DNA of 64,000 nt, from the NCBI GenBank assembly GCA_035945675.1, contig DASZAB010000034.1:30255-94254 (forward strand), given 5' to 3'. Shown piece by piece: positions 3,368 to 63,503 of the stretch. Position 1 is the first letter of the stretch. Each line of letters begins with the position of its first letter. The stretch is from Verrucomicrobiia bacterium. Lineage in GTDB: Bacteria; Verrucomicrobiota; Verrucomicrobiia; Limisphaerales; UBA11358. The position numbers were made by a program, and so were the translations under genes. Under the pieces are notes generated by a model. That model was not told the DNA's origin, made no database searches, and saw nothing but the letters and a program-made list of their open reading frames with translations.

Positions 3368-4891
3368 ATGAATTTGCCGTCCGCCAAACTCGCCAATACT
3401 GGATCGCTGGTCACCGAGAGCCCGATCCGTGATTTGGAGGCCATCATCCGCTCGCGAACGCCGCTGATTGCCGTCGAGACCGGCGAAGAACCGCAGATTG
3501 TCCAGATGGTGCGGCAAATCGCACAACGTTTGCAATTGAAAGCGTATCGCTGGACGGTGACGGAAGGCTTGCAGGCGTTCGATCCCTGTGACCAACCGCT
3601 GCAATCGGTCGTCAAATCCCAGGAGGTTCTGAGCTACATCAAAAATTCCGCTTCGTATTCGCTGTTCCTCCTGTTGGATTTCAATCCCTATTTGGAAGAC
3701 GCGGTGGTGGTGCGTTATTTGAAAGACATCGCCCTGACGTATGCGCACCACTTTTCAACGGTGGTCTTGGTCGGCTCAACCATGCCGGTGCCGCCGGAGC
3801 TGCAGCCGTTCACCGCGCGATTCCGCCTGCCGCTGCCGTCCGCCGATGAGGTGCGCGGCATCGTCTATGATGTGGCCGCCGACTGGGGCGCGGAACACGG
3901 CAAACGGGATGTCCAAACCACCAACAAGGCGGTTGATTTGCTGGTGCGGAACCTGGTTGGCCTTACCACCACCGATGTGCGCCGCCTGGCGCTCAAAGCC
4001 ATTAATGACGATGGCGTGATCTCCGAATCGGAGATGCCCGAAGTCATGCGCGCAAAATATGAATTGCTCGGCCGTGACGGCGTTTTGTCATTCGAATATG
4101 AAACCGTGCAATTCTCGGAAATTGGCGGCATGCAGCGGCTGCGGAACTGGCTGGCTGTGCGCAAGGACTTTTTCCTGGGTGACGCCGACACGCAGCTCGA
4201 CCCGCCGCGCGGCGTGTTGCTGCTGGGCGTGCAGGGTTGCGGCAAAAGTCTCGTGGCCAAGGCGGCCTCCGCGATTTTCGGCGTGCCGCTGCTCCGGCTC
4301 GATTTCAGCGTGCTTTACAACAAATACTATGGGGAAACCGAGCGTAATTTACGCAAGGCCTTTGAAACCGCTGAAGTCATGTCACCGTGCGTCCTGTGGA
4401 TGGACGAAATTGAAAAAGGTGTGGCCGTACAGGAGGACGACGACGGCTTGTCGCGCCGGATTTTGGGAACCTTCCTGACGTGGATGTCGGAACGCAAAAA
4501 ACCGGTTTTCGTCGTCGCCACCGCCAATGACATCATACGGCTGCCGCCGGAATTGGTGCGCAAAGGACGTTTCGATGAGATTTTTTTTGTGGATTTGCCG
4601 TCGCCGCAGAACCGTCGGGACATATTACAGATTCATCTGCGCAAACGCTCGCTGGAACCGGCGCAATTCGACCTGGACGTGCTGGTGGAAGGTTCAAAAG
4701 GTTTTTCGGGTTCGGAAATCGAACAGGCCATTGTCTCAGCCATGTACACCGCCCACGCGCAAGGACACGCCCTGACGCAGACGGATTTGATCGCCGAAAT
4801 CCACCAGACCCGGCCCTTGTCGGTGGTGATGAGGGAAAAGATCCAGGAAACGCGCGATTGGGCATCGGACCGCACCGTGCCCTGTGATTGA
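3368..4891 (+). CDS. AAA+ ATPase, Ycf46-like (N-terminal domain plus one C-terminal AAA module)
   Basis: Walker A GVQGCGKS, Walker B VLWMDEIEK, second region of homology ATANDIIRLPPELVRKGRFD. The N-terminus TPLIAVETGEEPQI resembles Ycf46-type proteins. Confidence 0.8.
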   Translation: MNLPSAKLANTGSLVTESPIRDLEAIIRSRTPLIAVETGEEPQIVQMVRQIAQRLQLKAYRWTVTEGLQAFDPCDQPLQSVVKSQEVLSYIKNSASYSLFLLLDFNPYLEDAVVVRYLKDIALTYAHHFSTVVLVGSTMPVPPELQPFTARFRLPLPSADEVRGIVYDVAADWGAEHGKRDVQTTNKAVDLLVRNLVGLTTTDVRRLALKAINDDGVISESEMPEVMRAKYELLGRDGVLSFEYETVQFSEIGGMQRLRNWLAVRKDFFLGDADTQLDPPRGVLLLGVQGCGKSLVAKAASAIFGVPLLRLDFSVLYNKYYGETERNLRKAFETAEVMSPCVLWMDEIEKGVAVQEDDDGLSRRILGTFLTWMSERKKPVFVVATANDIIRLPPELVRKGRFDEIFFVDLPSPQNRRDILQIHLRKRSLEPAQFDLDVLVEGSKGFSGSEIEQAIVSAMYTAHAQGHALTQTDLIAEIHQTRPLSVVMREKIQETRDWASDRTVPCD

Positions 4892-4892
4892 A

Positions 4893-5870
4893 TCACCGCG
4901 CAAAAATCTGGCGGATGACGTCTTCAATCGGGACTTCCTGGATGTCAATATCGGTCACCGGCAGGTCGTCGAGCAATGATTTGCAGACGGCAATCACGCG
5001 GTCGCGCTTGACCTTGAGGGTAATGGCGCTCGGCGTTTTTTCCACGACCTCGCCGTAGCGCGCCAGGCTTTCCGCAGGCTGCGCGTCCGCGTTGGTGCAT
5101 TGTATTGTGACGAACTTGAAATCGGCGAAACGGTCCACAATTTCGTCCAGCCGGCCGTCGAAGAAAATTTTGCCGCGGTCAATAATAATGACGCGCTGGC
5201 AAAGTGCCTGGATGTCGGCCATATAGTGGCTCGTGAGGAGAATCGTGGTCTTTTGATCGGCGTTGTGGCGGCGGATGAATTCGCGGACGGTCTTTTGTGA
5301 GACGACGTCCAGTCCGATGGTTGGTTCATCGAGGAAGAGCACCCTGGGCTGGTGCAGCAGCGAGGCGATGAGCTCCATTTTCATGCGTTCGCCGAGGGAA
5401 AGCTCGCGCACGCTCACGTTGAGCTTCTCCTGGACGGCCAGCAGCTCGCTCATTTCGGCTACCGTTCGCTCGAAACGCTCCGGGGGAATGCCGTAGATTT
5501 TTGCATTTAATTCGAGGGATTCGCGCGCGGGCAAATCCCACCAGAGCTGGTTTTTCTGGCCAAGGACCAGCGCGAACTGACGGCGGTATCCGTCGGCGCG
5601 TTCCCACGGTGTGTAACCGAGGACCCGGGCCGAGCCACCCGTGGGATAAAGCAGGCCGGCGAGCATTTTGAGCGTGGTGGTCTTGCCGGCGCCGTTCGGG
5701 CCGAGAAAACCGACCAGTTCGCCGGGTTCAATCTGGAAATGCACGTCGTTAACGGCAACGGTTTGCTCGTATTGACGGTGGAAAAGCCCTTTGACCGCGC
5801 CCGCAAAGCCGGGCTGCTTTTTATAGGTGCGAAAAGCCTTGGTCAGGCCGTTGACTTCAATGACCGGCAT
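4893..5870 (-). CDS. ABC transporter ATP-binding protein (ABC-2 type, no permease nearby)
   Basis: Walker A GPNGAGKTT, signature LSLGERMK, Walker B VLFLDEPT, H-loop TSH. Confidence 0.9.
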   Translation of the reverse strand: MPVIEVNGLTKAFRTYKKQPGFAGAVKGLFHRQYEQTVAVNDVHFQIEPGELVGFLGPNGAGKTTTLKMLAGLLYPTGGSARVLGYTPWERADGYRRQFALVLGQKNQLWWDLPARESLELNAKIYGIPPERFERTVAEMSELLAVQEKLNVSVRELSLGERMKMELIASLLHQPRVLFLDEPTIGLDVVSQKTVREFIRRHNADQKTTILLTSHYMADIQALCQRVIIIDRGKIFFDGRLDEIVDRFADFKFVTIQCTNADAQPAESLARYGEVVEKTPSAITLKVKRDRVIAVCKSLLDDLPVTDIDIQEVPIEDVIRQIFAR

Positions 5871-8478: not shown

Positions 8479-8524
8479 AACGCCCGATTCAAACGGCCAT
8501 GCGGCGGCGATGCCATTTGGAAAT

Positions 8525-8603
8525 TTCGGTGGGCGGGTGTCCTCGCGAGCCGGCTCGTCAGGAGCCACGCCCCCCCAAAAATGTACTGTTACCGCCGACG
8601 CGG
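8525..8603 (+). repeat. Family A palindromic element, copy A1 (intergenic)
   Basis: GGTGGGCGGGTGTCCTCGCGAGCCGGCTCGTCAGGAGCCACGCCCCC plus shared flank AAAATGTAC..TACC. Homologous to the copies at 22144, 55646, 58070 and 61988. Confidence 0.8.
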
Positions 8604-8755
8604 CAGTAACCTGATTTGAGGTTTGGGTCCCGCGTTCACGCGGTCCCGGGCCGCCTAACGGCGGAACTCCGGGCAAATTCAGGACAGTACCGCCGCCGCG
8701 CGTTCGTTGACACTGATTTTCCCGGCTGTTAGCTTTGTTCCTTCTGAAAGTCACG

Positions 8756-11700
8756 ATGGACTACAAAAATACATTAAACCTGCCGCGCACCGATTTCCCG
8801 ATGAAAGCCGACCTCGTGGCCCGGGAGCCGGAACGGCTGAATCAGTGGGAAAAGACCGGGCTTTACCGGAAAATCCAAGCCGCCCGCGCCGGAGCCGGAG
8901 AAAAGTTCGTTTTGCACGACGGCCCGCCTTTTGCCAACGGCGACGTCCATATCGGCACCGCGCTGAACAAGATTCTCAAGGACATCGTTGTTAAATATAA
9001 GACCTTACGCGGTTTTAGCGCGCCGTATGTGCCGGGCTGGGATTGTCATGGATTGCCCATTGAATTCAAGGTTTCCCAGGAGATGCGCAAGGCGGGCGAT
9101 GCCAGCGCCGACGCCGCGACCATTCGCAAGGCCTGTGAAACGTACGCCCGGAAGTACATTGACATCCAGCGTGTGCAGTTCAAACGGCTCGGTGTGCTGG
9201 GCGACTGGGAGAATCCCTACCTTACGCTGAACAAGGAATACGAGGCCGAAGAATTGCGGTTGTTCGCCAACATCGTTGAGAAAGGCTTTGTTTATCGCGG
9301 GAAAAAGCCGGTTTATTGGAGCATTCCCTGCCGTACGGCGCTCGCCGAGGCGGAAGTGGAATACAAGGACCACGTCAGCCCGAGCATTTACGTAAAGTTT
9401 CCCGTTAGTGGCCGGGCAAACACCTTTGTGCTCATCTGGACGACGACCCCCTGGACGCTTCCGGCGAACCTGGCTGTCGCTTACAACGATAAATTCCAAT
9501 ACCTCCAGGTCGGAGTTGGTGGCGAAAAATACATTTTATTCCGTGGTTTGCTTCCGGTCGTCGCCGAAAAATGCGGCTGGGTAAATTACACGCAATCGCC
9601 TTTCCCGACCGAAGAGCTCGCCAGGTTGGAATACCAGCACCCCTTCATCCCGGCGCGTAAAGGCAAAGCCTACGCTGCCGATTTTGTTACCAGCGACACC
9701 GGCACGGGTTTCGTCCATATAGCTCCCGGCCACGGTCTCGAAGACTATGGCCTGGGCTCGTCCGTCGGTCTGCCGATTTATTCGCCGGTGGACGATGACG
9801 GCAAGTTCGCCTACACGAACGAGTTGCCCGCGGAGCAACAGATGCCAAAGGAAATGATCGGCAAATCGATTCTCGAAAAGCATGGCAAAAGTGACGCCAA
9901 TGAAGCGGTTTTGCACGAACTCCGCGCGCACCATGCCCTGCTGCACCAGGAAAATTATCATCACAGCTACCCGCACTGCTGGCGCAGCAAAACGCCCGTC
10001 ATCTTCCGCGCGATGGACCAATGGTTCATCGAGATTGACCATGTGCTGGAGGGCACTGCTTCGTCAGTGCCCGAACATTTGGGGCAGCGACGAAGCGCCG
10101 CCCTCCAGGGTGAAACCTTTCGCAGTATCGCCCTCGCCGAAATTGACCGCGTGAATTGGGTTCCCGACTGGGGCGTCAATCGCATCAAAGCCGCCGTTGC
10201 CACAAGGCCCGATTGGTGCATTTCCCGGCAACGCACCTGGGGCGTGCCGATTCCGGCGTTTTACGACGCCAGGGGTGAACCGATTCTCGATGCGCAAATC
10301 GTCCGCAACGCCGCCGATTTGATAGAGAAACACGGCTCGAACGTCTGGTTCGAGAAATCCGCCGTCGACCTCTGGTCGCTCTTGAAACCGGAAGGTTGGA
10401 AGGGCGCGGAAGCGGTTTCCAAATCCAGCGACACCCTTGACGTGTGGATTGATTCCGGCAGCTCGTCACGAAGCGTGTTGATGCGACGGGAAGAATTGCA
10501 TCATCCCGCAGGACAGGCTTCCCGCCTGTCTCCATCTGAGAACAGAAAGTCAGAGACAGCCAAGATGCCGGTCGTGCAATGGCAGGCCGACATGTATTTC
10601 GAAGGTTCCGACCAGCATCGCGGCTGGTTTCAATCATCGCTGCTGCTCTCGCTGGCGGGCAATGGCACGGCCCCGTTCAAAATGGTGCTCACGAGCGGCT
10701 TTGTCGTGGATGCGGATCGCGAGAAGATTTCCAAGAGCAAACAGGGCGGCTATGAAAAACCGCAGACCGCCGAGGCCTATGTGAAGAAATGGGGCGCGGA
10801 CATCGTGCGACTGTGGGTGGCCTCGCAGGATTATCGCAACGACATCATCGTGAGCGAGGAGCGCATCGCCAAGGTCGCCGAGACCTACCGCGTCATCCGC
10901 AACGCGCTGCGCTATCAGCTCTCGAATCTTTACGATTTCGATCCGGCCAATCATTCCGTGCCGGACGAAAAGCTGACCGGCCTGGATCGCTGGATTTTGG
11001 GCGAATTCTCGAAACTGGAGCAGGAAGTTATCCAGGCTTACGACAATTACGAATTTCATGTGGTTTACCAGAAGGTCAGCCAGTTCCTTGCCGTTGAGCT
11101 CTCGGCGATCTACCACGACGTCATCAAGGACCGGCTTTACACCGACCCGGCGAATTCGCAGCGCCGCCGCTCGACGCAGACCACGCTGCACCGGCTCGTG
11201 ACCGGCCTTTGCCAGATGCTCGCGCCGATTTTGTCGTTCACGGCGGACGAGGCCTGGGAATTTGTGCCGGGGAAGAAAGAAGATTCTGTTCACGAAGTGA
11301 CTTGGCAGCCGCAATCATTAAAATCCCGTGCAGGACAACCGGAAGCTTGGTCGCTTCTTTTTGAATGGAGAGATCGGCTTTTGCCGGAATTGGAAAAAAT
11401 GCGGAAGGACAAATTGATTGGCAAATCTTTGGAATCAAAAATCGCCATTCCCTTTGCCGGCAAATCAGAACAATTCGACTCGTTGAGTTTTGTTGGTGGC
11501 AACGTTCAATCCTTGAAAGAGCTTTTGAATGTTTCGCAACTTTCAATTTGGCAATCGGACGGTTCGCCAGCCCCCCAGGAGGCAGAAGGAATGTTTAGCG
11601 CGGAAGAATTGAATGCTGTGCATTCGAGTCGGGAAGGATTTGCGATTAAGGTTTTGCACGCCGACGGCCAGAAATGCGAGCGCTGCTGGCATTGGGAAAC

Positions 11701-11779
11701 GGATGTCGGCTCGAATCCGGAGCACCCGACCATTTGCGGGCGTTGCGTCGCGGCGGTGCTGCAAGCCAAAGCATCATAG
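8756..11779 (+). CDS. ileS: Isoleucine--tRNA ligase (type 1, C-terminal zinc finger)
   Basis: HIGH region [16 protein letters not shown]-like [16 protein letters not shown]-terminal CERCWHW..CGRC. ATG at 8756 ([16 protein letters not shown]). Confidence 0.97.
10049..10105 (+). repeat. In-frame palindromic insertion 1 in ileS
   Basis: 17-nt imperfect inverted repeat GAGGGCACTGCTTCGTC / GACGAAGCGCCGCCCTC, 57 nt in total. Encodes [19 protein letters not shown]. The segment is absent from the E. coli IleS sequence as I recall it. Confidence 0.7.
10508..10579 (+). repeat. In-frame hairpin-repeat insertion 2 in ileS
   Basis: Perfect hairpin GACAGGC-ttccc-GCCTGTC (10512-10530) plus a decayed second arm GAGACAGCCAAGATGCCGGTC. 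Encodes [24 protein letters not shown], just before the GSDQHRGWF motif. Confidence 0.65.
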
Positions 11780-12667: not shown

Positions 12668-13807
12668 TCAACCTTGCGCCGGCTGCTGCTGCGTGAGGCA
12701 GTGCAACGTACCGCGACCGAGAACCAGGTCCACCGCGTGGAGGCCCACGACCGGCCGGTCTTTGAACAGTTCGCCCAAAATCCCCAGGGCAAGGCGGTCG
12801 TTGGGATCATTAAATGTCGGGACCAGGACGGCGGCGTTGCCGATGTAGAAATTTGCATAGCTCGCGGGCAAACGTTGGCTGTCAAAATAAAGCGGCGACG
12901 GCATGGGCAGCTCGACCACCTCCGGCTTGCCGCCGTCTTCCAGCCGTAGATCCCGGATGCGCTCCCGGTTTTCGGCGAGCGGGCGGTAATTCACGTCTTT
13001 TGAATTTTTTTCGCGCACCAGCACAAGCGTCCTGGGATTAACGAAGCGGCAAATGTCGTCAATGTGCCCGTGGGTGTCATCGCCGACCGGGCCCTTGGCC
13101 AGCCAAAAGACGTTCCGGACACCAAGATAATTTTTCAACGTCTTCTCGATTTCTGTTTTGCCGAGGCCGGGATTGCGGACCTGGACTTTAGGATCGAGGT
13201 AACATTGCTCCGTTGAGAGCAGCGTGCCGCGGCCGTTCAACTCGATGCCGCCGCCTTCAATGACGAATGGCCGGCCGTGGCATTCGGCGTGAAAAAGTTT
13301 CATTCGCAAAATGCGCGCGGCGGTCTCGGGCACTTTTGCGTCCTTGCGCCAGTTGCGGTATCTGGCCCAGCCGTTGAAATGGAAATGAACGATGGCGGTC
13401 TCGGTTTTGCCCTCACCCGGCCTCCGGCCACCCTCTCCCATCGGATGGGAGAGGGACAGGGGTGAGGGTCGTTTGACAAAAATCGGGCCGCTATCGCGCA
13501 TCCAGCTCCGATTCGTCGGGTGCACGGTAAACCGGATTTTCTCCAAATTGCAGCCGGCGCACTTGAGGATTCGGCGCGCAGAATTTTCCTCGGCTTGGTG
13601 GCGGACGAGAATGCAAACAATTTCACCCGGGGAAATTTTTCGCACCATTTCACCATAGACCCAGGGAATAACGGCGAATTTGCCCGGCCAGTCGCTGGCG
13701 TTATGCGGCCAGCTGAGCCAGGTGGCTTCATGCGGTTCCCATTCTGCCGGCATCCGGTAGCCCAGGTCGGCGGGAGTTGCTGTGTTTGCGGATTGCAGGT
13801 TCACCAT
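12668..13807 (-). CDS. aguA: Agmatine deiminase (PAD_porph family)
   Basis: YRMPAEWEPHEATWLSWP, RDSGPIFV, FNGWA, DDTHGHIDD, and C-terminal GTLHCLTQQQP with the catalytic Cys. ATG at 13807 chosen. Confidence 0.85.
   Translation of the reverse strand: MVNLQSANTATPADLGYRMPAEWEPHEATWLSWPHNASDWPGKFAVIPWVYGEMVRKISPGEIVCILVRHQAEENSARRILKCAGCNLEKIRFTVHPTNRSWMRDSGPIFVKRPSPLSLSHPMGEGGRRPGEGKTETAIVHFHFNGWARYRNWRKDAKVPETAARILRMKLFHAECHGRPFVIEGGGIELNGRGTLLSTEQCYLDPKVQVRNPGLGKTEIEKTLKNYLGVRNVFWLAKGPVGDDTHGHIDDICRFVNPRTLVLVREKNSKDVNYRPLAENRERIRDLRLEDGGKPEVVELPMPSPLYFDSQRLPASYANFYIGNAAVLVPTFNDPNDRLALGILGELFKDRPVVGLHAVDLVLGRGTLHCLTQQQPAQG
13410..13468. repeat. In-frame palindromic insertion in the agmatine deiminase gene
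   Basis: Perfect 12-bp arms CCCTCTCCCATC / GATGGGAGAGGG, nested in CCCTCACC..GGTGAGGG. Encodes PSPLSLSHPMGEGGRRPGEG between the conserved RDSGPIFV and FNGWA motifs. Confidence 0.75.
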
Positions 13808-14047
13808 AAAGGTGCGCCGAGCATAATCACCTGGCCCGCTCTCGGAAATCTTGAAACGCCGTTCACTGGCTGGAGCAGCAGGGTTTACAGGGGGGATTGG
13901 TTGAGCTTCCAACCATTATAATCGCCCACATTACGAATTAGTTCAAATGAAATATTTTTAAAAAAGTGACAGTGATCGGGTGCAAATCCACCTCCCTTGA
14001 ACGACCATAAATCAGGAACAGCGATTGCTCACAACGGTCTCGCTCTT

Positions 14048-21247: not shown

Positions 21248-21312
21248 CGGATCCGATGAACTTCACAATAACGTGACTTGCCTTGACAGCGATCCACGTC
21301 AATCCTTGTTGC

Positions 21313-24036
21313 GTGAAAGGCAAATCGTTCATCCACCTTGGAATTATTGTGCTGGCCGCGCTCGGCTTTCATTGTTTTGGCGGTGATTTCGACCAGACCA
21401 CCGAAATCGTCGGTCGTAACCCCAGCGGCTTTGAAACGCCGGTCAATCAACTCGTCACGCCCGCCGGAACGCCCGTCGAACTTCCCGGCCTGCGGCCGAA
21501 TGCACTCGCACTGAGTCCGGACGGCGAACGGCTCGTGACCGCCGGCCTGACGCAACGACTGATCGTCATCAATCCGGCAACCGGAACAATCCTGCAGCGC
21601 GTGCGGTTGCCCGCCGACGACAAAATTCCGCAGGCCGGATCCGTTTCCAGCGGCATTCTCCAACCGAACGAGAAGGCCAAGCTCAGTTTCACCGGCCTCG
21701 TCTTTTCGCCTGATGGCTCACGGATATACCTGGCCAACGTCAACGGCGACATCAAGGTTTTCAGCGTTGACGCGGACCATAAAGTCACGCCGTTGTTCTC
21801 CCTTCCGCTGCCGCCGGCCAACGCGCCGTTGCGCCAGGCCGAAATTCCGGCCGGGATCGCCGTTTCTTCAGACGGCAGGGAGCTTTACGTTGCCGGCAAC
21901 CTTTCTAATCACCTCCTTGAACTCGACGCCGTGACCGGGAAAGTTCTGCGGACTTGGGACACAGGTGTTGCGCCTTTCGATGTCGTCCTCTGCAAAAATA
22001 AAATTTATGTGAGCAACTGGGGTGGGCGGCGGCCGGGCCCGGACAGCCTGACCGGTCCGGCCGGCAACGGCATGAGGGTGCGTGTGGACGCGCGTTCCAT
22101 TGCCAGCGAAGGCTCGGTCTCGGTGATTGATTTGACAGAAGCTGGTGGGGCGAGCGTCCTCGCGAGCCATGGCAACGAGGGCTCGTCGGTAGCCTCGCCC
22201 CGCCCAATCCAGGAACTCCGGACCGGTTTGCATGCCTGCGCCCTGGCGTTAGCGCCCAATGGCCGTTGGCTGGTCGTCGCCAACGCGGGCAGCGACACGC
22301 TGAGCGTGATTGACACGCGGACGGACAAAATCTTCGAGACGATCTGTGCGCGGCAGAACCCGGCGGATTTATTTGGCGCGCAACCCAACGCGCTGGCCTT
22401 CGATAAAAAAGGCAAAACCCTGTTCGTTTGCAACGGCACCCAAAATGCCGTCGCCGTTTTCCGCTTCCAACCCGGCAAATCCAAATTGCTGGGCCTGATA
22501 CCCGTCGGCTGGTTCCCCGGTTCCATTGCGTATGATGCGAAGCGGAAGGAAATTTACGTGGCGAACATTAAAAACCTCAGTCCGGGGATTCGAAGTCACA
22601 CCGGCGAAACGGAGTTCAATTCCAAGGAATATTATGGTTCTCTGTCGCTCGTGCCAGTGCCGTCGAAAAGGGAATTGGCCAGGTTCACCCGGATTGCGCT
22701 GGCGGATTTGCGTTATCCGCTGCTCGCGCAGGCTGCGTTGCCGGCGCGACCCGATCAACCGTCGCGGCCGGTGCCGGAGCGGGCTGGCGAGCCGAGCGTT
22801 TTTCATCACGTCATCTACATCATCAAGGAAAACCGCACTTATGATCAGGTTCTGGGCGATGTCAAGGAAGGCAACGGCGACGCGAATTTGTGCACGTTCG
22901 GCGAGGCCGTCACTCCCAACCAACACAAGCTCGTACGCGATTTCGTGCTGCTGGACAACACGTACTGTTGCAGCATCCTCAGCGCGGACGGCCATCAATG
23001 GGCGGACACAGGCATCGCGATGGATTACGTGGAGCGCGGGTTTGCCGGCTGGCCGCGCAGCTATCCGGCGGGCGGTTTTGGCGAGGAAGGCCGGGACGCG
23101 CTGGCCTATTCACCGGCGGGTTTCATCTGGAACGACGCGCTCGCGCACGGCAAAACGGTTTGTGATTTCGGGGAATTCACCACCGCTCACAAACAATGGA
23201 AGGATTCCCGCCGCAAAGGTGAACCGGATTTTCTCGATTGTTACCACGATTTCCTGGCCGACTCGAATGCGATTGCCTATGCCTGCGAGCCGGACATCGA
23301 GGCGCTGCAACCTTATCTCATGACGAACACGATTGGCTGGGATTTGGACGTGCCGGACATCTGGCGCGCCGCGCAATTCGGCAAAGACCTGAAACAATTT
23401 GAAGCGGCAGACAATCTGCCAAATCTGGTCATCCTCTGGTTGCCGAACGACCACACCAGCGGCACCGCGTTCGGTTCGCCCACGCCCGCGGCGCAGGTGG
23501 CGGACAACGACCTGGCGGTCGGGCAGGTGGTCGAGGCTGTCAGCCACAGCAAGTATTGGAAGGACACGTGCATTTTTGCGGTGGAAGACGATCCGCAGAA
23601 CGGCTGGGACCACGTGAGCGGCTACCGCACCACCGCCTACGTCGCCAGCGCCTATACCCGTCGCGGCGCCGTGGTCAGCACCCAATACAATCAGACCAGT
23701 TTGCTGCGCACGATGGAACTCATGCTCGGGTTGCCGCCGATGAACCAGATGGATGCGACGGCCACGCCGATGTTCGATTGTTTCACCAACACGGCGGACT
23801 TCACACCGTTTACCGCCGTGGCCAACCAGACGCCGCTCGACCAAATGAATCCACCGCCGAAGAAAATTTCCGACGCGCGGCTGCGCAAGGACGCCTACGT
23901 ATCCGCGCGCTTGCCGCTCAAGAAGGAAGATCAATGCCCGGAAGACGTGTTCAATCGCATCTTATGGGATGCGACCAAAGGTCCGCAGACGCCGTATCCG
24001 GTCTGGGCGGTCAAAGCGCTGGATGACGATGATTGA
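21313..24036 (+). CDS. Secreted YncE-like beta-propeller fused to a phosphoesterase (phospholipase C / AcpA family) domain
   Basis: GTG 21313 gives the signal peptide KGKSFIHLGIIVLAALGF. Propeller repeats (LSPDG, FSPDGSRIYLAN, SSDGRELYVAG). Phosphoesterase motifs VIYIIKENRTYDQVLGD, LPNDHTSG, VEDDPQNGWDHV. Confidence 0.85.
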   Translation: MKGKSFIHLGIIVLAALGFHCFGGDFDQTTEIVGRNPSGFETPVNQLVTPAGTPVELPGLRPNALALSPDGERLVTAGLTQRLIVINPATGTILQRVRLPADDKIPQAGSVSSGILQPNEKAKLSFTGLVFSPDGSRIYLANVNGDIKVFSVDADHKVTPLFSLPLPPANAPLRQAEIPAGIAVSSDGRELYVAGNLSNHLLELDAVTGKVLRTWDTGVAPFDVVLCKNKIYVSNWGGRRPGPDSLTGPAGNGMRVRVDARSIASEGSVSVIDLTEAGGASVLASHGNEGSSVASPRPIQELRTGLHACALALAPNGRWLVVANAGSDTLSVIDTRTDKIFETICARQNPADLFGAQPNALAFDKKGKTLFVCNGTQNAVAVFRFQPGKSKLLGLIPVGWFPGSIAYDAKRKEIYVANIKNLSPGIRSHTGETEFNSKEYYGSLSLVPVPSKRELARFTRIALADLRYPLLAQAALPARPDQPSRPVPERAGEPSVFHHVIYIIKENRTYDQVLGDVKEGNGDANLCTFGEAVTPNQHKLVRDFVLLDNTYCCSILSADGHQWADTGIAMDYVERGFAGWPRSYPAGGFGEEGRDALAYSPAGFIWNDALAHGKTVCDFGEFTTAHKQWKDSRRKGEPDFLDCYHDFLADSNAIAYACEPDIEALQPYLMTNTIGWDLDVPDIWRAAQFGKDLKQFEAADNLPNLVILWLPNDHTSGTAFGSPTPAAQVADNDLAVGQVVEAVSHSKYWKDTCIFAVEDDPQNGWDHVSGYRTTAYVASAYTRRGAVVSTQYNQTSLLRTMELMLGLPPMNQMDATATPMFDCFTNTADFTPFTAVANQTPLDQMNPPPKKISDARLRKDAYVSARLPLKKEDQCPEDVFNRILWDATKGPQTPYPVWAVKALDDDD
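22144..22205 (+). repeat. Family A palindromic element, copy A2, in frame inside the phosphoesterase CDS
   Basis: GGTGGGGCGAGCGTCCTCGCGAGCC..GGCTCGTCGGTAGCCTCGCCCCGCCC, translated as GGASVLASHGNEGSSVASPRP. Confidence 0.85.
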
Positions 24037-34404: not shown

Positions 34405-35634
34405 GTGAAGTTTCTTGCCGAAATCAACGAAAGTCTGGGCATTTCCTGGAATGCGCTGCGCGCAAACAAGATGCGCTCGGTGCTGGCCACGCTGGGGATT
34501 GTCATCGGCATCCTCACCGTCACGCTCATGGGCGCAGCCATTAATGGCTTGAATCAGGCGTTCATCAGAAACGTTTCCGCCCTCGGTGCGGACGTGTTCT
34601 ACGTCTCGCGTTTTAAGTGGTTCAATAACACCTATGAAGACTGGGTGAGCATGCGCAAGCGTCCCAAAATCACTCTTGCGGAATCGGACGCTCTGGCCCG
34701 ACAACTGACGTTGGCCGACGCCGTCGCGCCGACTGCGGACAATGAAGATTCGGTTAAATATAAAAATCGCAGTGCCAGCAGCGTGGACGTCGTGGGCACC
34801 ACCGAGGCCTATCTGCAAACCAGCGGAGTGGACGTGGCCCAGGGCCGGTTCCTGACCGCGGCGGATGCCCGGGGCGGCCAGCCAACCTGTGTCATTGGCA
34901 ATGACGTCGCCACCAATCTCTTTCGCGCGGATCCGCCGCTGGGTGAACGCATCAAAATTGAAGACCAATCTTTTCTCGTGGTCGGTGTGCTGGAGAAACA
35001 GGGGACCATGTTCGGCTACAGCCTCGACAACCGGGTGATCATTCCTTTGAGACAGTATATCGGTTTGATCGAAAGAAATCCCGGCATTGATATTCAGGTG
35101 AAAGTCGGGGATTTGGCCCATCTGGATGAAGCCCGGGAGGAGTTGCGCCAGACGATGCGCCGCATCCGCCATCTCCGGCCAAACCAGCCCGATAATTTTT
35201 CCATCAACCAGCAGGATGAGATCGTCAAATGGTTCCATGACCAGACTGCCACCATCGCCGTCATCGGTTTGTTCGTCACGAGCCTGGCGCTGTTCGTCGG
35301 CGGCATCGGCATCATGAACATCATGTTTGTTTCCGTGGTCGAGCGGACGCGGGAGATCGGTGTGCGCAAGGCGATTGGCGCCAAACGCCGCAATATTTTG
35401 CTGCAATTTCTGATCGAGTCCGCCAGCGTTTGCCTGATGGGCGGCCTGATCGGGCTGGGCATCGCCTGGGTGATATCGCTCGCCGTTTCGAAGTGGCTGT
35501 TTCCGGCGACCCTGTCTGTGACCATTGTTACCCTGTCCCTGCTCGTGTCACTGTTGACGGGGGTGATTTCCGGTTTCCTGCCGGCCTGGCGCGCCGCGCG
35601 CATGGATCCGGTGGAGGCATTAAGAAGCGAATAA
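34405..35634 (+). CDS. ABC transporter permease (MacB/FtsX family) 1
   Basis: GTG start. MacB_PCD-like periplasmic domain between TM1 and TM2. C-terminal FtsX motif GIMNIMFVSVVERTREIGVRKAIGA. Confidence 0.9.
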   Translation: MKFLAEINESLGISWNALRANKMRSVLATLGIVIGILTVTLMGAAINGLNQAFIRNVSALGADVFYVSRFKWFNNTYEDWVSMRKRPKITLAESDALARQLTLADAVAPTADNEDSVKYKNRSASSVDVVGTTEAYLQTSGVDVAQGRFLTAADARGGQPTCVIGNDVATNLFRADPPLGERIKIEDQSFLVVGVLEKQGTMFGYSLDNRVIIPLRQYIGLIERNPGIDIQVKVGDLAHLDEAREELRQTMRRIRHLRPNQPDNFSINQQDEIVKWFHDQTATIAVIGLFVTSLALFVGGIGIMNIMFVSVVERTREIGVRKAIGAKRRNILLQFLIESASVCLMGGLIGLGIAWVISLAVSKWLFPATLSVTIVTLSLLVSLLTGVISGFLPAWRAARMDPVEALRSE

Positions 35635-35640
35635 TGAAAA

Positions 35641-35740
35641 ACTGGATGAATGGATTTTTGGATCAATGGATTATTGAGGCCGTGAACGGCCGCGTATTGA
35701 ATTCATTGATCCATCAATCCAATAATCCAATAATCCAATC
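35641..35740. repeat. GGAT/ATCC-rich inverted-repeat element G2 in an operon spacer
   Basis: CTGGATGAATGGATTTTTGGATCAATGGATTATTGAG ... ATTGATCCATCCAATCCAATAATCC-type arms around a GGCCG-tgaa-CGGCC loop. Related to G1. Confidence 0.7.
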
Positions 35741-35746
35741 TTTGTC

Positions 35747-54100: not shown

Positions 54101-55756
54101 TTATTTTTCCAGGTTGTATCTGACGAAATCCAGGTCGGCGGTCCCCCCATTGGGCCCGTAGCAAAACAATGCCAGCCGCGCACCCTTCCATTTGCCGAAC
54201 TTCAATTCCACCGCCAGTCCGGTGTCGGTGTAGTGTTCGCCATCGGTACTGTAGAACAGTCGCGCCTCCTTCCCATGGTACTTGCCCCGGAACCATACGT
54301 CAGCGCCCTTTAACACCGGGCCCGCGCCATTTTCCAAGGCGATTCGCCGCACTCCGTCGCTCTGCGTTACCCCAACCCAGTCAAACCTGTCGCCGCTCAT
54401 AAAGGCAAATCCGGTGCATTGGTTTTCCGCCATGGCGCTGACATCGAACTTTGTGTCAATGAGGCCGTCCTGTCCCAACAATTTTTCGGTCAGGGTGTTG
54501 TGGGCGGTGGACAGGCCGGAGGCGGGCAAGGCGTTGAGTCGCAGCCAGCCGGGCCGGGCCGTCAGTGACCAGGAGTCATTCATTGGGTTGTGGTTCCATT
54601 GCCAGATCGGAGACAGCACCGGATCGTCGAAATCGTCGCTTCTTTGTGGATGATGAATGGGAGAAGGCCGTCCGACATAAGGTTTTTTCCATCGGTCCAC
54701 CGACTGGCCGTGATCGCCGAACACCGGCCAGTCATCTGTGCCCCAGGTGACCGGCATCAGGTAGGTGATACGTCCAAGGAAACCGCTGGATTTGAAGCAC
54801 AGAAACCACCATTGACCATCAGCCAGTTCCACGAGCGCGCCTTGATGCGGACTGCCATCAGGCAACACCACCCGCCGTTCGTACGGGCCATAAATATTGG
54901 TGGAACGGAGCATCGTCTGGCCGCCCGTGCCGACGCCGCCTTCCGGAAGGGATATGTAATACCAGCCGTTCCGTTTGAAGAGTTTTGGGCCTTCCGCCGT
55001 CGGGCCGTGATAAATTTCAACACCGTCATCCAGCAATCGCACCCCGTCCGGGCTCATGCGGTGCAGAATCAATGGGCCGGCACCCTTGAGACTATGAATG
55101 AGGTACGCCTGCCCGTCGTCATCCCAGAACGGGCAGGGATCTTCCCAGCGTTCCACGGCCCGAACGGTGAACGTTCGCGACCACGGCCCGGCTGGATTTT
55201 GGGCGTGCCACATGAATAAACCTTCGGACGGAGTACAGACGAAGACGTAATAGGTACCGTTGTGATAACGCAAGGTCGGCGCCCACGTCCCCTCACCATA
55301 GCCGGTCAGGTCATCGTACTTTGGCGACATGCTCAACCGGTGGAATACCTGGCCGATGACTTCCCAATTGACGAGATCGCGCGAATGCAACACCTGCATG
55401 CCGACGAAGTGAAAATCCGACGCGACCAGATAAAAATCGTTCCGGACGCGAATGACGTCAGGATCGGAATAATCCGCGGGCAGGACCGGATTTCGATAGG
55501 TGCCGTCGCCCTGGTCACCCCAGCTCAGTGGCGATTCGGCGGGAATGGCCGGCGGGGCCGGTTGACTGGCGGCGGTAAAGCTCATCATCATGATGCCGGT
55601 AAAAAGCGAAATGGCGCCTTTTCGGGTGAAAGTATATTCCGCAACTTTCGGTGGGGCGAGCGTCCTCGCAAGCCGGCTCGTCAGTAGCCTCGCCCCATCA
55701 AAATGTACCACTACCCGTTTCCATAGGGCGCGGATGGTTTGGGACCGGTTTACCAT
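54101..55756 (-). CDS. Glycoside hydrolase family 43 protein with C-terminal beta-sandwich domain
   Basis: YRNPVLPADYSDPDVIRVRNDFYLVAS, WAPTLRYHNGTYY, EGPKLFKRNGWYY (GH43 blades). The start is uncertain (55756 or the MMM at 55591) because a family A repeat lies in the 5' part. Confidence 0.85.
   Translation of the reverse strand: MVNRSQTIRALWKRVVVHFDGARLLTSRLARTLAPPKVAEYTFTRKGAISLFTGIMMMSFTAASQPAPPAIPAESPLSWGDQGDGTYRNPVLPADYSDPDVIRVRNDFYLVASDFHFVGMQVLHSRDLVNWEVIGQVFHRLSMSPKYDDLTGYGEGTWAPTLRYHNGTYYVFVCTPSEGLFMWHAQNPAGPWSRTFTVRAVERWEDPCPFWDDDGQAYLIHSLKGAGPLILHRMSPDGVRLLDDGVEIYHGPTAEGPKLFKRNGWYYISLPEGGVGTGGQTMLRSTNIYGPYERRVVLPDGSPHQGALVELADGQWWFLCFKSSGFLGRITYLMPVTWGTDDWPVFGDHGQSVDRWKKPYVGRPSPIHHPQRSDDFDDPVLSPIWQWNHNPMNDSWSLTARPGWLRLNALPASGLSTAHNTLTEKLLGQDGLIDTKFDVSAMAENQCTGFAFMSGDRFDWVGVTQSDGVRRIALENGAGPVLKGADVWFRGKYHGKEARLFYSTDGEHYTDTGLAVELKFGKWKGARLALFCYGPNGGTADLDFVRYNLEK
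55646..55722 (+). repeat. Family A palindromic element, copy A3 (inside the 5' part of the GH43 ORF, inverted relative to the gene)
   Basis: TTTCGGTGGGGCGAGCGTCCTCGCAAGCCGGCTCGTCAGTAGCCTCGCCCCATCAAAATGTACCACTACC. Near-identical to A1, including the flanks. Confidence 0.85.
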
Positions 55757-55877: not shown

Positions 55878-56483
55878 ATGCTGTCGAGCGAAAATGGTCC
55901 TGCCGGTTTGATTTATGATTTGCCGTCGATCCTCAGCCGGGTGGATCCGGCTGCCCTGTTTCAGCGGGCGCAGCCGCTGGAGGTCGAATTGGGTTGCGGC
56001 GATGCTTCGTTTCTGGTCGAACTGGCGCGGCGGCAACCGGAAAAGAACTTCATCGGCGTCGAACGACTCCTGGGCCGGCTGCGCAAGCTGGAGCGCAAAG
56101 GCCGCCGCGCCGGACTGATGAATCTGCGCGGCGTGCGCATCGAATCGTCCTATTTCCTGGAATTTCTGCTCCCGCCGCATTCGGTGTCGGTCTTGCACAT
56201 CTATTTTCCCGATCCCTGGCCCAAGAAAAAACACCGCAAATACCGGCTCATCAACGAACGTTTTCCGGAACTTGCCCGGGCCGCCCTCGCCTCGGGCGGC
56301 GCGGTCTTTTTGCGCACGGACGATCCGGATTATTTCCAGCAAATGACTGAAGTGTTTGGCGCCAACGGGGAGTTTCAGCGGATGGAAACGCCGCCCGAGC
56401 TGGCAAACTTGCTGACGGATTTTGAACAGGAATTCAATGCCAGGGGGATTCACACTTTGCGCGCGGCGTACGGGGTTTGTTAA
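55878..56483 (+). CDS. trmB: tRNA (guanine46-N7)-methyltransferase
   Basis: LEVELGCGDASFL, IGVER, LHIYFPDPWPKKKHRKYRLI. ATG 55878 chosen inside ORF 55590..56483. Confidence 0.9.
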   Translation: MLSSENGPAGLIYDLPSILSRVDPAALFQRAQPLEVELGCGDASFLVELARRQPEKNFIGVERLLGRLRKLERKGRRAGLMNLRGVRIESSYFLEFLLPPHSVSVLHIYFPDPWPKKKHRKYRLINERFPELARAALASGGAVFLRTDDPDYFQQMTEVFGANGEFQRMETPPELANLLTDFEQEFNARGIHTLRAAYGVC

Positions 56484-56559
56484 AAGAGTGAATGGTTAAA
56501 TCAGTTAAATGAGTTGGCGCGGCCAGCCTGCTCACTCATTTAACCGGTTACTCTTTTAA
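56480..56559. terminator. Long imperfect hairpin between convergent trmB and the holin-family gene (possible bidirectional terminator)
   Basis: TTAAAAGAGTGAATGGTTAAAT..GAGT (56480-56514) pairs with ACTCATTTAACCGGTTACTCTTTTAA (56534-56559). Confidence 0.5.
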
Positions 56560-56570
56560 CCAATTGCCCG

Positions 56571-61157: not shown

Positions 61158-63296
61158 TTACTTCCTCGTCCGCTTCAATTTTTTATAACTCACCGGCTTC
61201 GCTTCCGGTTTTTCGCCGTTGACCATGCGTTTCAATTCCTTGATCTGGTCGCGGAGCAGGGCGGCTTTTTCAAATTCCAGCTTTTCCGCCGCTGCCAGCA
61301 TTTCGGTTTCGAGTTCGCTGATGGTTTCCGTCAGGTCCACGTCCATTGCGGCATCTTTCAGGACGGACGCGCCGGCTTCGCGTTTCGATTCGTAAACGGC
61401 CAGGCTTTCTTCAACCGCGCGGCTGACGCTGCGGGGTGTGATGTTGTGTTCCGCGTTGTAAGCGATTTGTTTTTGGCGGCGATATTCGGTCACGGCCAGA
61501 AATCTGTTGATGCTGTTCGTCATCACGTCGGCATAGAGAATCACCTCACCGTGCAAATGCCGCGCGGCGCGGCCCGCGGTCTGGATCAAACTCGTTTCAC
61601 TGCGCAGAAAACCTTCCTTGTCCGCGTCGAGGATCGCCACCAATGAAACTTCCGGCAAATCCAGACCTTCCCGCAACAGGTTGATGCCGACGAGCACATC
61701 GAATTCGCCTTTGCGGAGCGAACGCAAAATCTCCACGCGCTCAATGGCGTCAATCTCACTGTGGAGATACTGGACGTTGACGCCGATGCCGCGCAGGTAA
61801 TCGGTCAGTTCCTCGGCAGTGCGTTTGGTGAGTGTCGTTACAAGGATGCGCTCCTTCGCCTCGGCACGTTTGCGGCATTCCTCGATCAGATCGTCGATCT
61901 GGCCTTTGAGCGGTTTGAGCGTGACCTTGGGGTCGATCAGACCGGTGGGGCGCACCACGAGTTCGACGACGCCCGGCATTTGTTGGTGGGGCGAGGCTAC
62001 TGACGAGCCGGCTGTTTCGATTCGGCTCGCGGGGACGCTCGCCCCACCGTTCGATTCGGCTCGCGGGGACGCTCGCCCCGCGGTGGCACTTTCCCGCGAC
62101 CATTCCAGTTCGCGTTTGGCCGGAGTGGCGCTGACGTAAATCGTCTGGCCTTGCATTCCTTGAAATTCCTCGAATTTCAGCGGGCGATTATCCAGCGCAC
62201 TCGGCAGGCGGAAACCGTACTCAACCAAAACGGTCTTCCGCGAGCGGTCCCCTTCGAACATCGCGCCGATTTGCGGGACGGTCGCGTGAGATTCATCAAT
62301 CACCAGCAGGTAATCGTTCGGAAAAAAGTCAATGACGGTTGCCGGGCGCGAGCCGGGCGGGCGTCCGGCGATGTGGCGCGAATAATTTTCGATGCCGGAA
62401 CAGACGCCCATCTCCTCCATCATCTCCAGGTCGAATTCCGTGCGCTGCTTGATGCGCTGGGCTTCGAGCAGTTTGCCATTCTTTTCAAACCAGACGATGC
62501 GCTCGCGCAATTCCTCGCGGATGGCGAGAGCGGCGCGCTTCATCTTGTCGGCGGTGGTGACAAACTGCTTTCCCGGGAAAATGGTCACGGCGTCGAGCGT
62601 TTCGGTTTTGTTTCCCGTCAACGGATCGAAACGGGTGAGCCGCTCGATTTGCTCGCCGAAAAATTCGACGCGCAGGCCGTCTTCGCGCCCCGCTGGCCGG
62701 ACTTCCACGGTGTCACCGCGCACGCGGAAATGGCCGCGTTCGAACGCGATGTCATTCCGGTCGTACTGCAAATCCACCAGGCGCGCGAGGAGTTGCTCGC
62801 GCGAGATTTCCAGGCCGACGCGGATGGGAATGACCATCGCTTCGTAATCTTCCTTGCTGCCGATGCCGTAAATGCACGACACGCTGGCAACGACGACGAC
62901 ATCCCGGCGCGAGAACAGCGAACTCATGGTTGAGAGCCGCAGTCGCTCGATTTCTTCGTTCCGGCTGGAATCCTTCTCGATGAATGTGTCCGTGCGCGGG
63001 ATGTAGGCTTCCGGCTGGTAATAATCGAAGTAACTGACGAAGTATTCGACGGCGTTGCGGGGAAAAAATCCCTTGAACTCGGCGTAAAGCTGCGCGGCCA
63101 GTGTTTTGTTGTGGGAAATGACCAGCGTGGGTTTGTCCACGTTTTTGATGACGTTGGCGATGGCGAAGGTTTTCCCGGAGCCGGTGACGCCGAGGAGCGT
63201 CTGGTGTTTTGCGCCCGACAAAATGCCATCGGTCAGCTTCGCAATCGCTTGCGGCTGGTCACCGGCGGGCTGGAAGGGCGCGACGAGTTCGAACAT
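61158..63296 (-). CDS. uvrB: Excinuclease ABC subunit B
   Basis: GVTGSGKTF, DESH, YVSATP, VRPTGL, LREGLDLPEV, GRAARH, C-terminal UVR domain EKAALLRDQIKELK. ATG 63296. Confidence 0.97.
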   Translation of the reverse strand: MFELVAPFQPAGDQPQAIAKLTDGILSGAKHQTLLGVTGSGKTFAIANVIKNVDKPTLVISHNKTLAAQLYAEFKGFFPRNAVEYFVSYFDYYQPEAYIPRTDTFIEKDSSRNEEIERLRLSTMSSLFSRRDVVVVASVSCIYGIGSKEDYEAMVIPIRVGLEISREQLLARLVDLQYDRNDIAFERGHFRVRGDTVEVRPAGREDGLRVEFFGEQIERLTRFDPLTGNKTETLDAVTIFPGKQFVTTADKMKRAALAIREELRERIVWFEKNGKLLEAQRIKQRTEFDLEMMEEMGVCSGIENYSRHIAGRPPGSRPATVIDFFPNDYLLVIDESHATVPQIGAMFEGDRSRKTVLVEYGFRLPSALDNRPLKFEEFQGMQGQTIYVSATPAKRELEWSRESATAGRASPRAESNGGASVPASRIETAGSSVASPHQQMPGVVELVVRPTGLIDPKVTLKPLKGQIDDLIEECRKRAEAKERILVTTLTKRTAEELTDYLRGIGVNVQYLHSEIDAIERVEILRSLRKGEFDVLVGINLLREGLDLPEVSLVAILDADKEGFLRSETSLIQTAGRAARHLHGEVILYADVMTNSINRFLAVTEYRRQKQIAYNAEHNITPRSVSRAVEESLAVYESKREAGASVLKDAAMDVDLTETISELETEMLAAAEKLEFEKAALLRDQIKELKRMVNGEKPEAKPVSYKKLKRTRK
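61988..62083 (-). repeat. Family A element, copy A5, with a 34-nt tandem re-duplication of one arm, in frame inside uvrB
   Basis: GGGGCGAGGCTACTGACGAGCCGGC..TCGATTCGGCTCGCGGGGACGCTCGCCCC occurs twice. Translated as ATAGRASPRAESNGGASVPASRIETAGSSVASPH. Confidence 0.85.
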
Positions 63297-63503
63297 GCGA
63301 AATGAAGGTAGAAGCGGAACCAACGAGAGTCAATGAAGCGCCAGCCCGGCTCTAAAGTCTGGCAGGGCGCGTCACTCCGTGCGCGCCGTGGGCCCCGTAC
63401 GCCGGCAGGCAGGGGACCGCCCGTCCTGCCCAATTTGAAATCAGGCCTCCGATCCACCTCGGAGCTTCTCTTTATTGGAAAATCTGATTAGACTCCTTGT
63501 CCA

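Follow-up and report, generated by a model that had tools for sequence, protein, structure and literature searches.

Repetitive extragenic palindromic sequences (REPs) that lie inside genes and encode 20–30 residues have been documented, and the count of REPs of the GTAG type is highest in the verrucomicrobium Opitutus terrae; intragenic REPs are numerous also in R. conorii (PMC3733652). The host genes often serve repair and translation, e.g. uvrB and the tRNA synthetase genes, and recB of two Xanthomonas species contains, at approximately one site, REPs that differ between the two (PMC3733652). The classic examples of palindromic elements located in frame are the Rickettsia palindromic elements (RPEs; Ogata et al. 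2000), summarised in PMC10969869 and PMC3733652. Here we analyzed a palindrome located in frame within the agmatine deiminase gene (aguA) in a 64,000-nt stretch of a Verrucomicrobiia metagenome-assembled genome (MAG; contig DASZAB010000034.1), the whole of which is referred to as the window. The palindrome appears to be one copy of a 58–60-nt structured, dispersed repeat, here called the GEG element after its translation. We consider it highly probable that this is an old copy, situated in a tolerant loop of AguA, kept by a process acting at the nucleic-acid level, and lost or replaced in other lineages.

The in-frame insertion in agmatine deiminase

The features of the locus, in window coordinates, are:

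12668–13912, minus strand: open reading frame (ORF) of agmatine deiminase (AguA, PAD_porph), full-length PF04371, with the probable start Met at 13807
13409–13468, minus strand: in-frame insertion of 60 nt or 20 codons (PSPLSLSHPMGEGGRRPGEG), consisting of the 59-nt repeat element and one base
13410–13418, plus-strand sequence: outer stem arm CCCTCACCC
13419–13429, no strand: hairpin 2, GGCC-tcc-GGCC on the plus strand and GGCC-gga-GGCC on the coding strand; variable module, always paired
13431–13455, no strand: hairpin 1, 12-bp perfect arms and one central base; conserved core of the family, with at least 143 exact copies elsewhere
13460–13468, plus-strand sequence: outer stem arm GGGTGAGGG, which closes the three-way junction

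The plus strand reads CCCTCACCC (13410–13418), GGCCtccGGCC (13419–13429), A, CCCTCTCCCATC-g-GATGGGAGAGGG (13431–13455), ACAG, and GGGTGAGGG (13460–13468). The original prediction, made from the letters of the window alone, had described a palindrome with 12-bp perfect arms nested in outer arms and interrupting agmatine deiminase in frame. The nested arms were confirmed on the plus strand, where the 12-bp arms of hairpin 1 lie within 9-bp outer arms together with a small second hairpin that had been overlooked, and the in-frame position was borne out by the full-length PF04371 match, the open frame, and the translation of the segment as PSPLSLSHPMGEGGRRPGEG. The coding-strand RNA was predicted to fold into a three-way junction composed of the outer stem, the 12-bp hairpin 1, and the 4-bp hairpin 2, with an energy of −43.9 kcal/mol compared with −29.5 ± 3.6 kcal/mol for shuffled sequences (z = −4.0; 0 of 200 shuffles equally good). 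The 25-mer core occurs once within the window, and none of 100 dinucleotide shuffles matched it with up to three mismatches allowed.

The PF04371 match spans profile positions 1–321 of 321 (E = 2.1e-108; 362.8 bits against a cut-off of 25). The annotated start of the ORF is probably to be replaced by the Met at 13807, which gives a protein of 379 aa. This product is 100% identical to P0001, an NCBI MAG protein from a ‘Verrucomicrobiae bacterium’ with the annotation agmatine deiminase, and a protein-cluster look-up for the window AguA gave the accession HEV2435034.1. Among 34 close homologs, the catalytic-type motifs RDSGP, THGHIDD, and HCLTQQ form invariant columns and are retained in the window protein, and the order redoxin, aguA, NosD-like, deoxyhypusine-synthase-like is shared with orthologs. 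Judged from its sequence, the gene looks functional, because the invariant motifs are intact and the synteny is kept. The closest solved structure is 1XKN (E = 2.5e-90), which shows a gap at the position of the insert. An AlphaFold2 model computed from the 34-sequence alignment was discarded for its mean pLDDT of 44.9, and no structural claim was built on it.

Alignment with AguA orthologs, the check that had been proposed, showed that, compared with many of them and with 1XKN, the segment is inserted. The 20 extra codons are located between CGA (Arg) and AAA (Lys) in the loop following RDSGPIF: the minimal loop of an ortholog reads AAA CGG/AAA AGC GAA ACC, and the window reads AAA CGA/60 nt/AAA ACC GAG ACC. 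In the protein, PSPLSLSHPMGEGGRRPGEG is flanked by RDSGPIFVKR and KTETAIVHFHFNGWA, and the loop has 31 residues compared with 11 in the minimal form (VKR-KSETAIVH) found among 80 metagenome loci. The 34 close homologs share RDSGPIF before the site and AIVHFHFNGW after it, and the stretch in between is variable. The segment is translated where the original prediction had placed it, between two conserved blocks, but the fixed flank is not present in all orthologs, and no other part of the protein is as variable as the loop (11 to 45 aa among AguA orthologs). A second variable spot was seen at alignment columns approximately 277–288 (FHAEC^HGRPF), where P0005, P0010, P0012, P0016, P0023, and P0038 have 8–11 extra residues of heptamer-repeat type (VATQNLKFKTQN, SIRNPQSAIRN) and the window AguA has none.

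The copy would have entered between the Arg and Lys codons, in the turn after the substrate-binding RDSGP, in one of four stop-free frames, and the ribosome would read through it and add 20 residues; the enzyme would stay intact because the turn tolerates 0 to approximately 34 extra residues. Translational bypass or excision of the insert from the RNA found no support, the frame being open in every copy and host gene. The window comes from a MAG, and several matches of the copy scan described below are situated no more than 100 nt from the end of a contig, as might be expected if a repeat had been misjoined into aguA during assembly or binning. We attach almost no weight to such an artefact, since the identical junction is found in frame in at least six independent assemblies (NCBI, ENA, JGI), in which the coding sequence continues to either side of it.

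Copies of the GEG element in related genomes

To count further copies, as had also been proposed, one genome per species was scanned with the query CCCTCTCCCATCNGATGGGAGAGGG, and the counts are lower bounds. The core was found in at least 143 exact copies, in at least 118 stretches, mostly of Verrucomicrobiota MAGs. Approximately 68 of the 80 listed records carry the label Verrucomicrobia or Verrucomicrobiota, and single MAGs supply up to 12 or more contigs with core copies. The prediction of a REP-like element is supported by these results, because the core is a multi-copy, dispersed palindromic repeat that also occurs in frame in unrelated genes; the opposite outcome, a segment lacking further copies and aligned with conserved homologous residues in orthologs, was checked for and was not what we found. 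The GEG family would thus be an abundant constituent of Verrucomicrobiota genomes, behaving as selfish DNA of the REP type or of the type of MITEs (miniature transposable elements with inverted repeats).

The core is modular and used in several architectures. The window form, CCCTCACCCC-nn-hairpin 1-T-hairpin 2-GGGTGAGGG, was found in 46 distinct sequences, the commonest version having 58 nt. The element is 58–60 nt long with outer arms of 9–10 bp, and its layout would be that of an outer stem of this length around two hairpins, one of 12 bp whose sequence is fixed and a short one whose sequence varies. In a second, MITE-like architecture, two 37-bp inverted ends lie 90–110 bp apart (L010, L029, L032, L066, L077, L088, and L097).

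Hairpin 2 varies in sequence and length between copies but is paired in all 28 distinct copies (100%). One of its pairs is GC in 11, CG in 8, GU in 4, UA in 3, and AU in 2 of them; the covariation score of hairpin 2 was 0.089 compared with 0.040 in shuffles (0 of 500 shuffles as high), and 96.9% of the cells were paired compared with 44–61% when the partners were slid.

Eight host genes besides AguA hold the GEG element in frame with domains on both sides. The spanning ORFs with Pfam domains on either side encode pyruvate dehydrogenase E1 (PDH-E1), PurL, an HsdR-type helicase, two Ser/Thr kinases, UvrB, and an NRPS adenylation domain, and the PDH-E1 copies occupy an identical inter-domain position in two genomes. 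Four of the six frames of the element are stop-free, and its peptides read LSHxMGEG, HPLPSDGRG, or SPIGWER, depending on the frame and orientation in the host.

Exact cores were also seen outside the Verrucomicrobiota label (L001, L020, L036, L011, L023, L032, L037, L038, L066, L048, and L073), in MAGs labelled Acidobacteriota (‘Candidatus Angelobacter’, Granulicella), ‘Bifidobacteriaceae’, Hydrogenedentota, and Nostoc. Mis-binning, mislabelling, or real spread across phyla may account for them. Some copies multiply as part of larger repeats, the core being contained in tandem duplications of 284 bp in L105 (5086/5370/5654) and 1378 bp in L102 (5266/6644).

Age, constraint, and turnover of the AguA copy

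To examine the age of the AguA copy, six DNA copies were compared (window, L206, L119, L060/L120, L207, and L208). All six share the junction CGA/CCCTCACCCC...GGGTGAGGGC/AAA, with GGGTGAGGAC in the decayed L207 copy. Third codon positions were compared among the five copies with a 60-nt insert, the insert of L208 being 69 nt long. The identity of flanking third positions was 57–68% gene-wide and 48–80% in the 40 codons on each side, and the synonymous sites of the AguA genes that share the insert are close to saturation. Within the insert, 18–20 of the 20 third positions were identical (binomial P per pair from 0.07 to 4e-6, the pairs not being independent). Recombination was rejected as the cause of this conservation, since the 40 codons on either side show the same degree of divergence as the remainder of the gene. 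Besides the changes in L207, the differences between the copies are confined to the spacer, the central base of hairpin 1, and hairpin 2.

These results agree with the earlier claim that the stem is unlikely to be kept by protein-level selection alone: the synonymous positions of the insert are 90–100% identical compared with 57–68% in the flanks. We conclude that the conservation is not at the protein level, because the third positions of the insert are conserved while the flanks have diverged, and because the residue at the palindrome centre varies (P, R, Q, or L in different orthologs). The open frame and the near-identical peptide in 18 of 120 homologs could also be explained if the 20 residues were a functional module, such as an interaction or localisation loop, under selection as protein. 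We regard this as very improbable: synonymous positions are as conserved as non-synonymous ones, sister proteins have unrelated peptides or none, and other hosts translate GEG DNA in different frames and orientations.

The loops at the AguA site were classified in the 120 best AguA homologs, which have 69–100% identity, as follows:

GEG peptide: 18 of 120
Apparent reverse-orientation GEG element (P0100; judged from the peptide): 1 of 120
Heptamer-repeat peptides (e.g. TPNSELRTPNSE, SPKSKVQSPKSE): 15 of 120
21-residue form: 29 of 120
GRDAALRRPRTSQRDVPT type: 9 of 120
...AVTDRRYN type: 8 of 120
GRAGSPLPA...SDAPY type: 5 of 120
GFSRxGxRLKAELQ type: 5 of 120
NAELRSA type: 3 of 120
AGILPA type: 1 of 120
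Short loops of 11–13 residues: 8 of 120

At least eight insert types, i.e. at least seven besides GEG, are thus found at the site, and some orthologs have no insert. The large types all enter one interval of approximately two codons, and each is a palindrome of its own at the DNA level, with energies between −32 and −44 kcal/mol (−41.5, −41.6, −34.4, and −32.6 kcal/mol for four of them). Two types start with GGTAGGG and one ends with GCTACA, and they carry in this way the GTAG tag of classical REPs (PMC3733652). The heptamer loops are simple arrays, e.g. (CGAACTC)x5, derivable from the native CGAAnnnCGAAACC. A role of such arrays as landing pads for GEG was rejected as too weakly supported, with 4 of 143 copies (2.8%) against 1.1% at random positions. 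No frame-breaking insertion was found among the 80 metagenome AguA loci, which were retrieved by protein and are biased against such cases.

In a neighbour-joining tree computed with the loop masked, the loop types were interleaved and polyphyletic, and sister genes differed in type. The closest relative of the window, L199 (92% amino-acid and 85.6% third-position identity), has a heptamer array and no trace of GEG, and the loop contents of L119 and L200 are wholly different at 87.0% third-position identity. From these two pairs it follows that loss or replacement of the insert is fast relative to the divergence of the gene. In other lineages, the nearest relative included, the copy would have disappeared, or heptamer arrays or unrelated palindromic repeats would have taken its place at that point. 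Two observations in the window concern similar sequences. A palindrome at approximately 63363–63430, outside any long spanning ORF, resembles the GRAGSPLPA...SDAPY element of the L202 AguA loop, and inverted, AT-rich arrays built of short tandem units (GGATnnAT/AATCCAAT-like) at 35630–35742 and 56476–56563 may be heptamer or octamer arrays like those near repeats in related loci.

The original prediction took the insertion to be recent. This is doubtful and probably wrong, as the six AguA genes share the junction and a rare 59-nt variant of the element, and the changes follow the gene tree. The variant has a 3-nt spacer (TGT or GGT) that is present in all six AguA copies and was not seen in approximately 40 distinct non-AguA copies of the same architecture. 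One pair of hairpin 2 passes from G-C (window, L206, and L207) to G.T in L119 and to A-T in its sister L060. In L207, hairpin 1 has a T-A to G-C double change and one mismatch, and the outer stem has C-to-T changes that are still G.U-compatible on the sense strand. L208 has kept the junction, the spacer, and hairpin 1; its hairpin 2 is longer and resembles that of another subfamily, which hints at exchange with other genomic copies.

Repeated recent insertion at one specific site, where each AguA lineage drew its copy independently from the genomic pool and the conserved look merely reflects youth, would also account for the scatter of GEG-bearing genes over the tree, the different loop contents of sister genes, the perfect palindrome arms in five of the six copies, and the subfamily-typical hairpin 2 of L208; with at least seven other repeat families in the same two-codon interval, the site clearly receives insertions. 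This explanation deserves serious consideration, but we think it rather unlikely. The spacer is shared by all AguA copies and absent elsewhere, the spacer and hairpin 2 variants track the AguA tree, including the G-C to G.T to A-T series in sister genes, and the decay and compensatory change in L207 are those of an old copy; furthermore, no conserved target motif or duplication was found. Taken together, the sequence comparisons make a single old insertion, vertically inherited and preserved at the level of the nucleic acid, more likely than many new ones. The copy is probably orthologous in several AguA lineages, and it is nearly unchanged, with pair-preserving changes, while the neighbouring synonymous sites are approximately 60% identical. 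We infer that a nucleic-acid-level process, and not the peptide, conserves it; the candidates are a trans-acting protein (e.g. a Y1/HUH transposase) that recognises the folded single strand and/or homogenisation among genomic copies.

It is also conceivable, though quite improbable, that the structure is a selected cis-acting element of the aguA mRNA, e.g. a ribosome pause between folding units, an RNase barrier, or a binding site. The insert is far better conserved than the adjacent synonymous sites, its changes preserve pairing, including the G.U type possible on the sense strand only, and different orthologs bear different, equally strong hairpins at the same place, all of which would be expected of such an element. 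Against this, close relatives with heptamer arrays or minimal loops are unstructured here (dG 0 to −9) while sharing the same synteny, and the GEG element is present also in unrelated genes and in intergenic DNA. A search of the region with Rfam 15 covariance models gave a single match, to SAM-SAH (E = 0.84), which is a chance match outside the element. No terminator-like site was found on either strand in 13300–13600, the hairpin being followed on the sense strand by CAAAACC and no T/U run, and a terminator and promoter scan of the region found nothing.

Genes for Y1_Tnp (IS200/RAYT-like) transposases were examined as a possible source of mobility. A tblastn search with the Y1_Tnp of L203 found four genes, only one of which adjoins GEG copies, and only on one side. 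This is the gene of L077 (4630–5109, plus strand), which directly follows a GEG inverted pair (4487–4623) and has its 5′ end sequence repeated at approximately 5375–5412. The Y1_Tnp genes in L203, L135, and L116 are not adjacent to GEG copies; that of L203 (11252–11644, minus strand) is located immediately downstream of aguA, among other palindromic repeats. With one-sided adjacency only, a link between GEG and a REP-associated tyrosine transposase (RAYT) or REPtron was not established. Approximately 1.4 Mb of loci, in which no systematic search was made, showed no insertion sequence whose ends match.

The window contains further palindromes that lie in frame in ORFs, each with Pfam domains on both sides:

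8717–11776, plus strand: IleRS ORF, with a hairpin at 10046–10108 (−45.8 kcal/mol) in frame at IDH^DKFRE
21277–24033, plus strand: beta-propeller/phosphoesterase ORF, with a GTGG-type palindrome at 22144–22204 in frame (...GGASVLASHGNEGSSVASPRP...)
61161–63329, minus strand: UvrB ORF, with a GGTGGGGCGAG...CTCGCCCCACC palindrome at 61985–62048 in frame between UvrB_inter and Helicase_C

The IleRS site has no insert in four genomes (L060, L122, L203, and L204), and four different palindromic inserts of approximately 22–28 residues are found there in the others (L119/L200, L202, and L207 among them). The UvrB site (RELEW...^GVVELVVRPTGL) is occupied by a GTGG-type repeat in the window and by a GEG element in an 80%-identical UvrB (L094). 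More palindromes of the GGTGGGGCG...CGCCCCACC type lie at 8524–8579 and 55646–55703 of the window, apparently outside long ORFs; their GTGG end is reminiscent of the degenerate GTAG tag that the GTAG-20 REPs of O. terrae are reported to have. A 23-bp inverted repeat (dG −56.9 kcal/mol) was seen at 1–61, at the edge of the window, where its context is cut off.

Because copies are lost or replaced at the AguA site, it would be a recurrent landing or survival spot for repeats, and likewise the IleRS and UvrB sites. The recurrence at one codon may come from a high flux of insertions that passes a strong tolerance filter, or from resident hairpins that attract other elements. A bolder possibility is that the AguA turn after RDSGP, IleRS IDH^DKF, and UvrB ELEW^VVEL are true integration hot spots, where unrelated structured repeats are exchanged by hairpin-directed cut-and-replace and the resident is kept by selection on the folded single strand. 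We find this unlikely; if true, it would amount to a ‘docking site’ system for repeats in coding DNA, not to passive survival in tolerant loops.

Several points weigh against an old, vertically inherited copy of a mobile repeat in a tolerated loop. The hairpin 2 of L208 is more readily explained by re-insertion or gene conversion than by simple vertical descent, and the AguA tree is a neighbour-joining tree with no bootstrap values. The core occurs only once in the 64-kb window, the multi-copy state being seen in related genomes. Hairpin 1 gives no evidence of covariation, because the construction of the search makes it invariant, and the covariation of hairpin 2 depends on a single pair together with length variants. 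No mobilising enzyme could be tied to the family and no REPtron was found in the examined loci, Y1_Tnp genes being no more frequent in the loci selected for GEG than in the AguA loci; at the junctions (CGA/element/AAA) there was no target-site duplication, direct repeat, or conserved flanking motif. Translation of the insert and AguA activity are deduced from the gene sequence, and the surface exposure of the loop from alignment gaps, because the AlphaFold2 model was unusable.

Relation to known repeat systems

In annotation, 20-residue low-complexity stretches such as ...LSHPMGEGGRRPGEG... in MAG proteins of soil and freshwater Verrucomicrobiota should be read as translated repeat DNA, and as neither protein motifs nor assembly errors; one and the same repeat gives several recurring peptides, depending on its frame and orientation. 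The site also offers a natural experiment in evolution, in which one loop carries at least eight interchangeable repeat families among genes that are 70–90% identical. Both the maintenance of REP-like elements (by selection on structure, gene conversion, or re-insertion) and their recurrence at one codon become testable at the AguA locus, and insertion-tolerant sites are marked in AguA, IleRS, and UvrB for protein engineering.

Bacterial MITEs (e.g. Correia, ERIC, and Nezha) are non-autonomous elements with terminal inverted repeats, and some of them make in-frame fusions. The GEG element resembles them in its terminal inverted repeats, which are arms of 9–10 bp in the window form and ends of 37 bp in the paired form. 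Unlike MITEs, it has no target-site duplication or parent insertion sequence that we could find, and the window copy is much shorter.

The GEG element is similar to the intragenic REPs (Di Nocera, De Gregorio and Rocco 2013, PMC3733652) in being short, hairpin-forming, dispersed, and present in high copy number. REPs are mostly intergenic, with a minority in frame in conserved genes (PMC3733652), and GEG is likewise found in frame; the complementary stem changes and G.T pairs that distinguish REP sub-families are likewise seen in hairpin 2. Unlike the GTAG and CGTC REPs, however, the GEG ends CCCTCACCC and GGGTGAGGG are devoid of GTAG or CGTC, as are the flanks, and whereas a REP is a single stem-loop of 20–40 bp, GEG is a composite three-way junction of 58–60 nt. 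REPs are also associated with a REPtron, a RAYT gene flanked by repeats, and none was found for GEG.

Like the RPEs, GEG is palindromic selfish DNA that lies in frame in several unrelated genes, is free of stop codons, and is compatible with the fold of the host protein. The RPEs are approximately 100–150 bp long, AT-rich, and restricted to Rickettsia, whereas GEG has 58–60 nt, is GC-rich, and occurs in free-living soil and water Verrucomicrobiota, so that element length and host lineage set it apart from the families RPE-1 to RPE-10. GEG is most suitably placed in the REP/RPE-like class, as a new member that lacks the tag. Intragenic repeats have been described before, and the phenomenon belongs to a known class. 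Two findings go beyond the published descriptions that a limited literature search retrieved, namely the serial occupation of one codon by at least eight families, with such sites in three genes, and a structural constraint at the sequence level inside a coding region.

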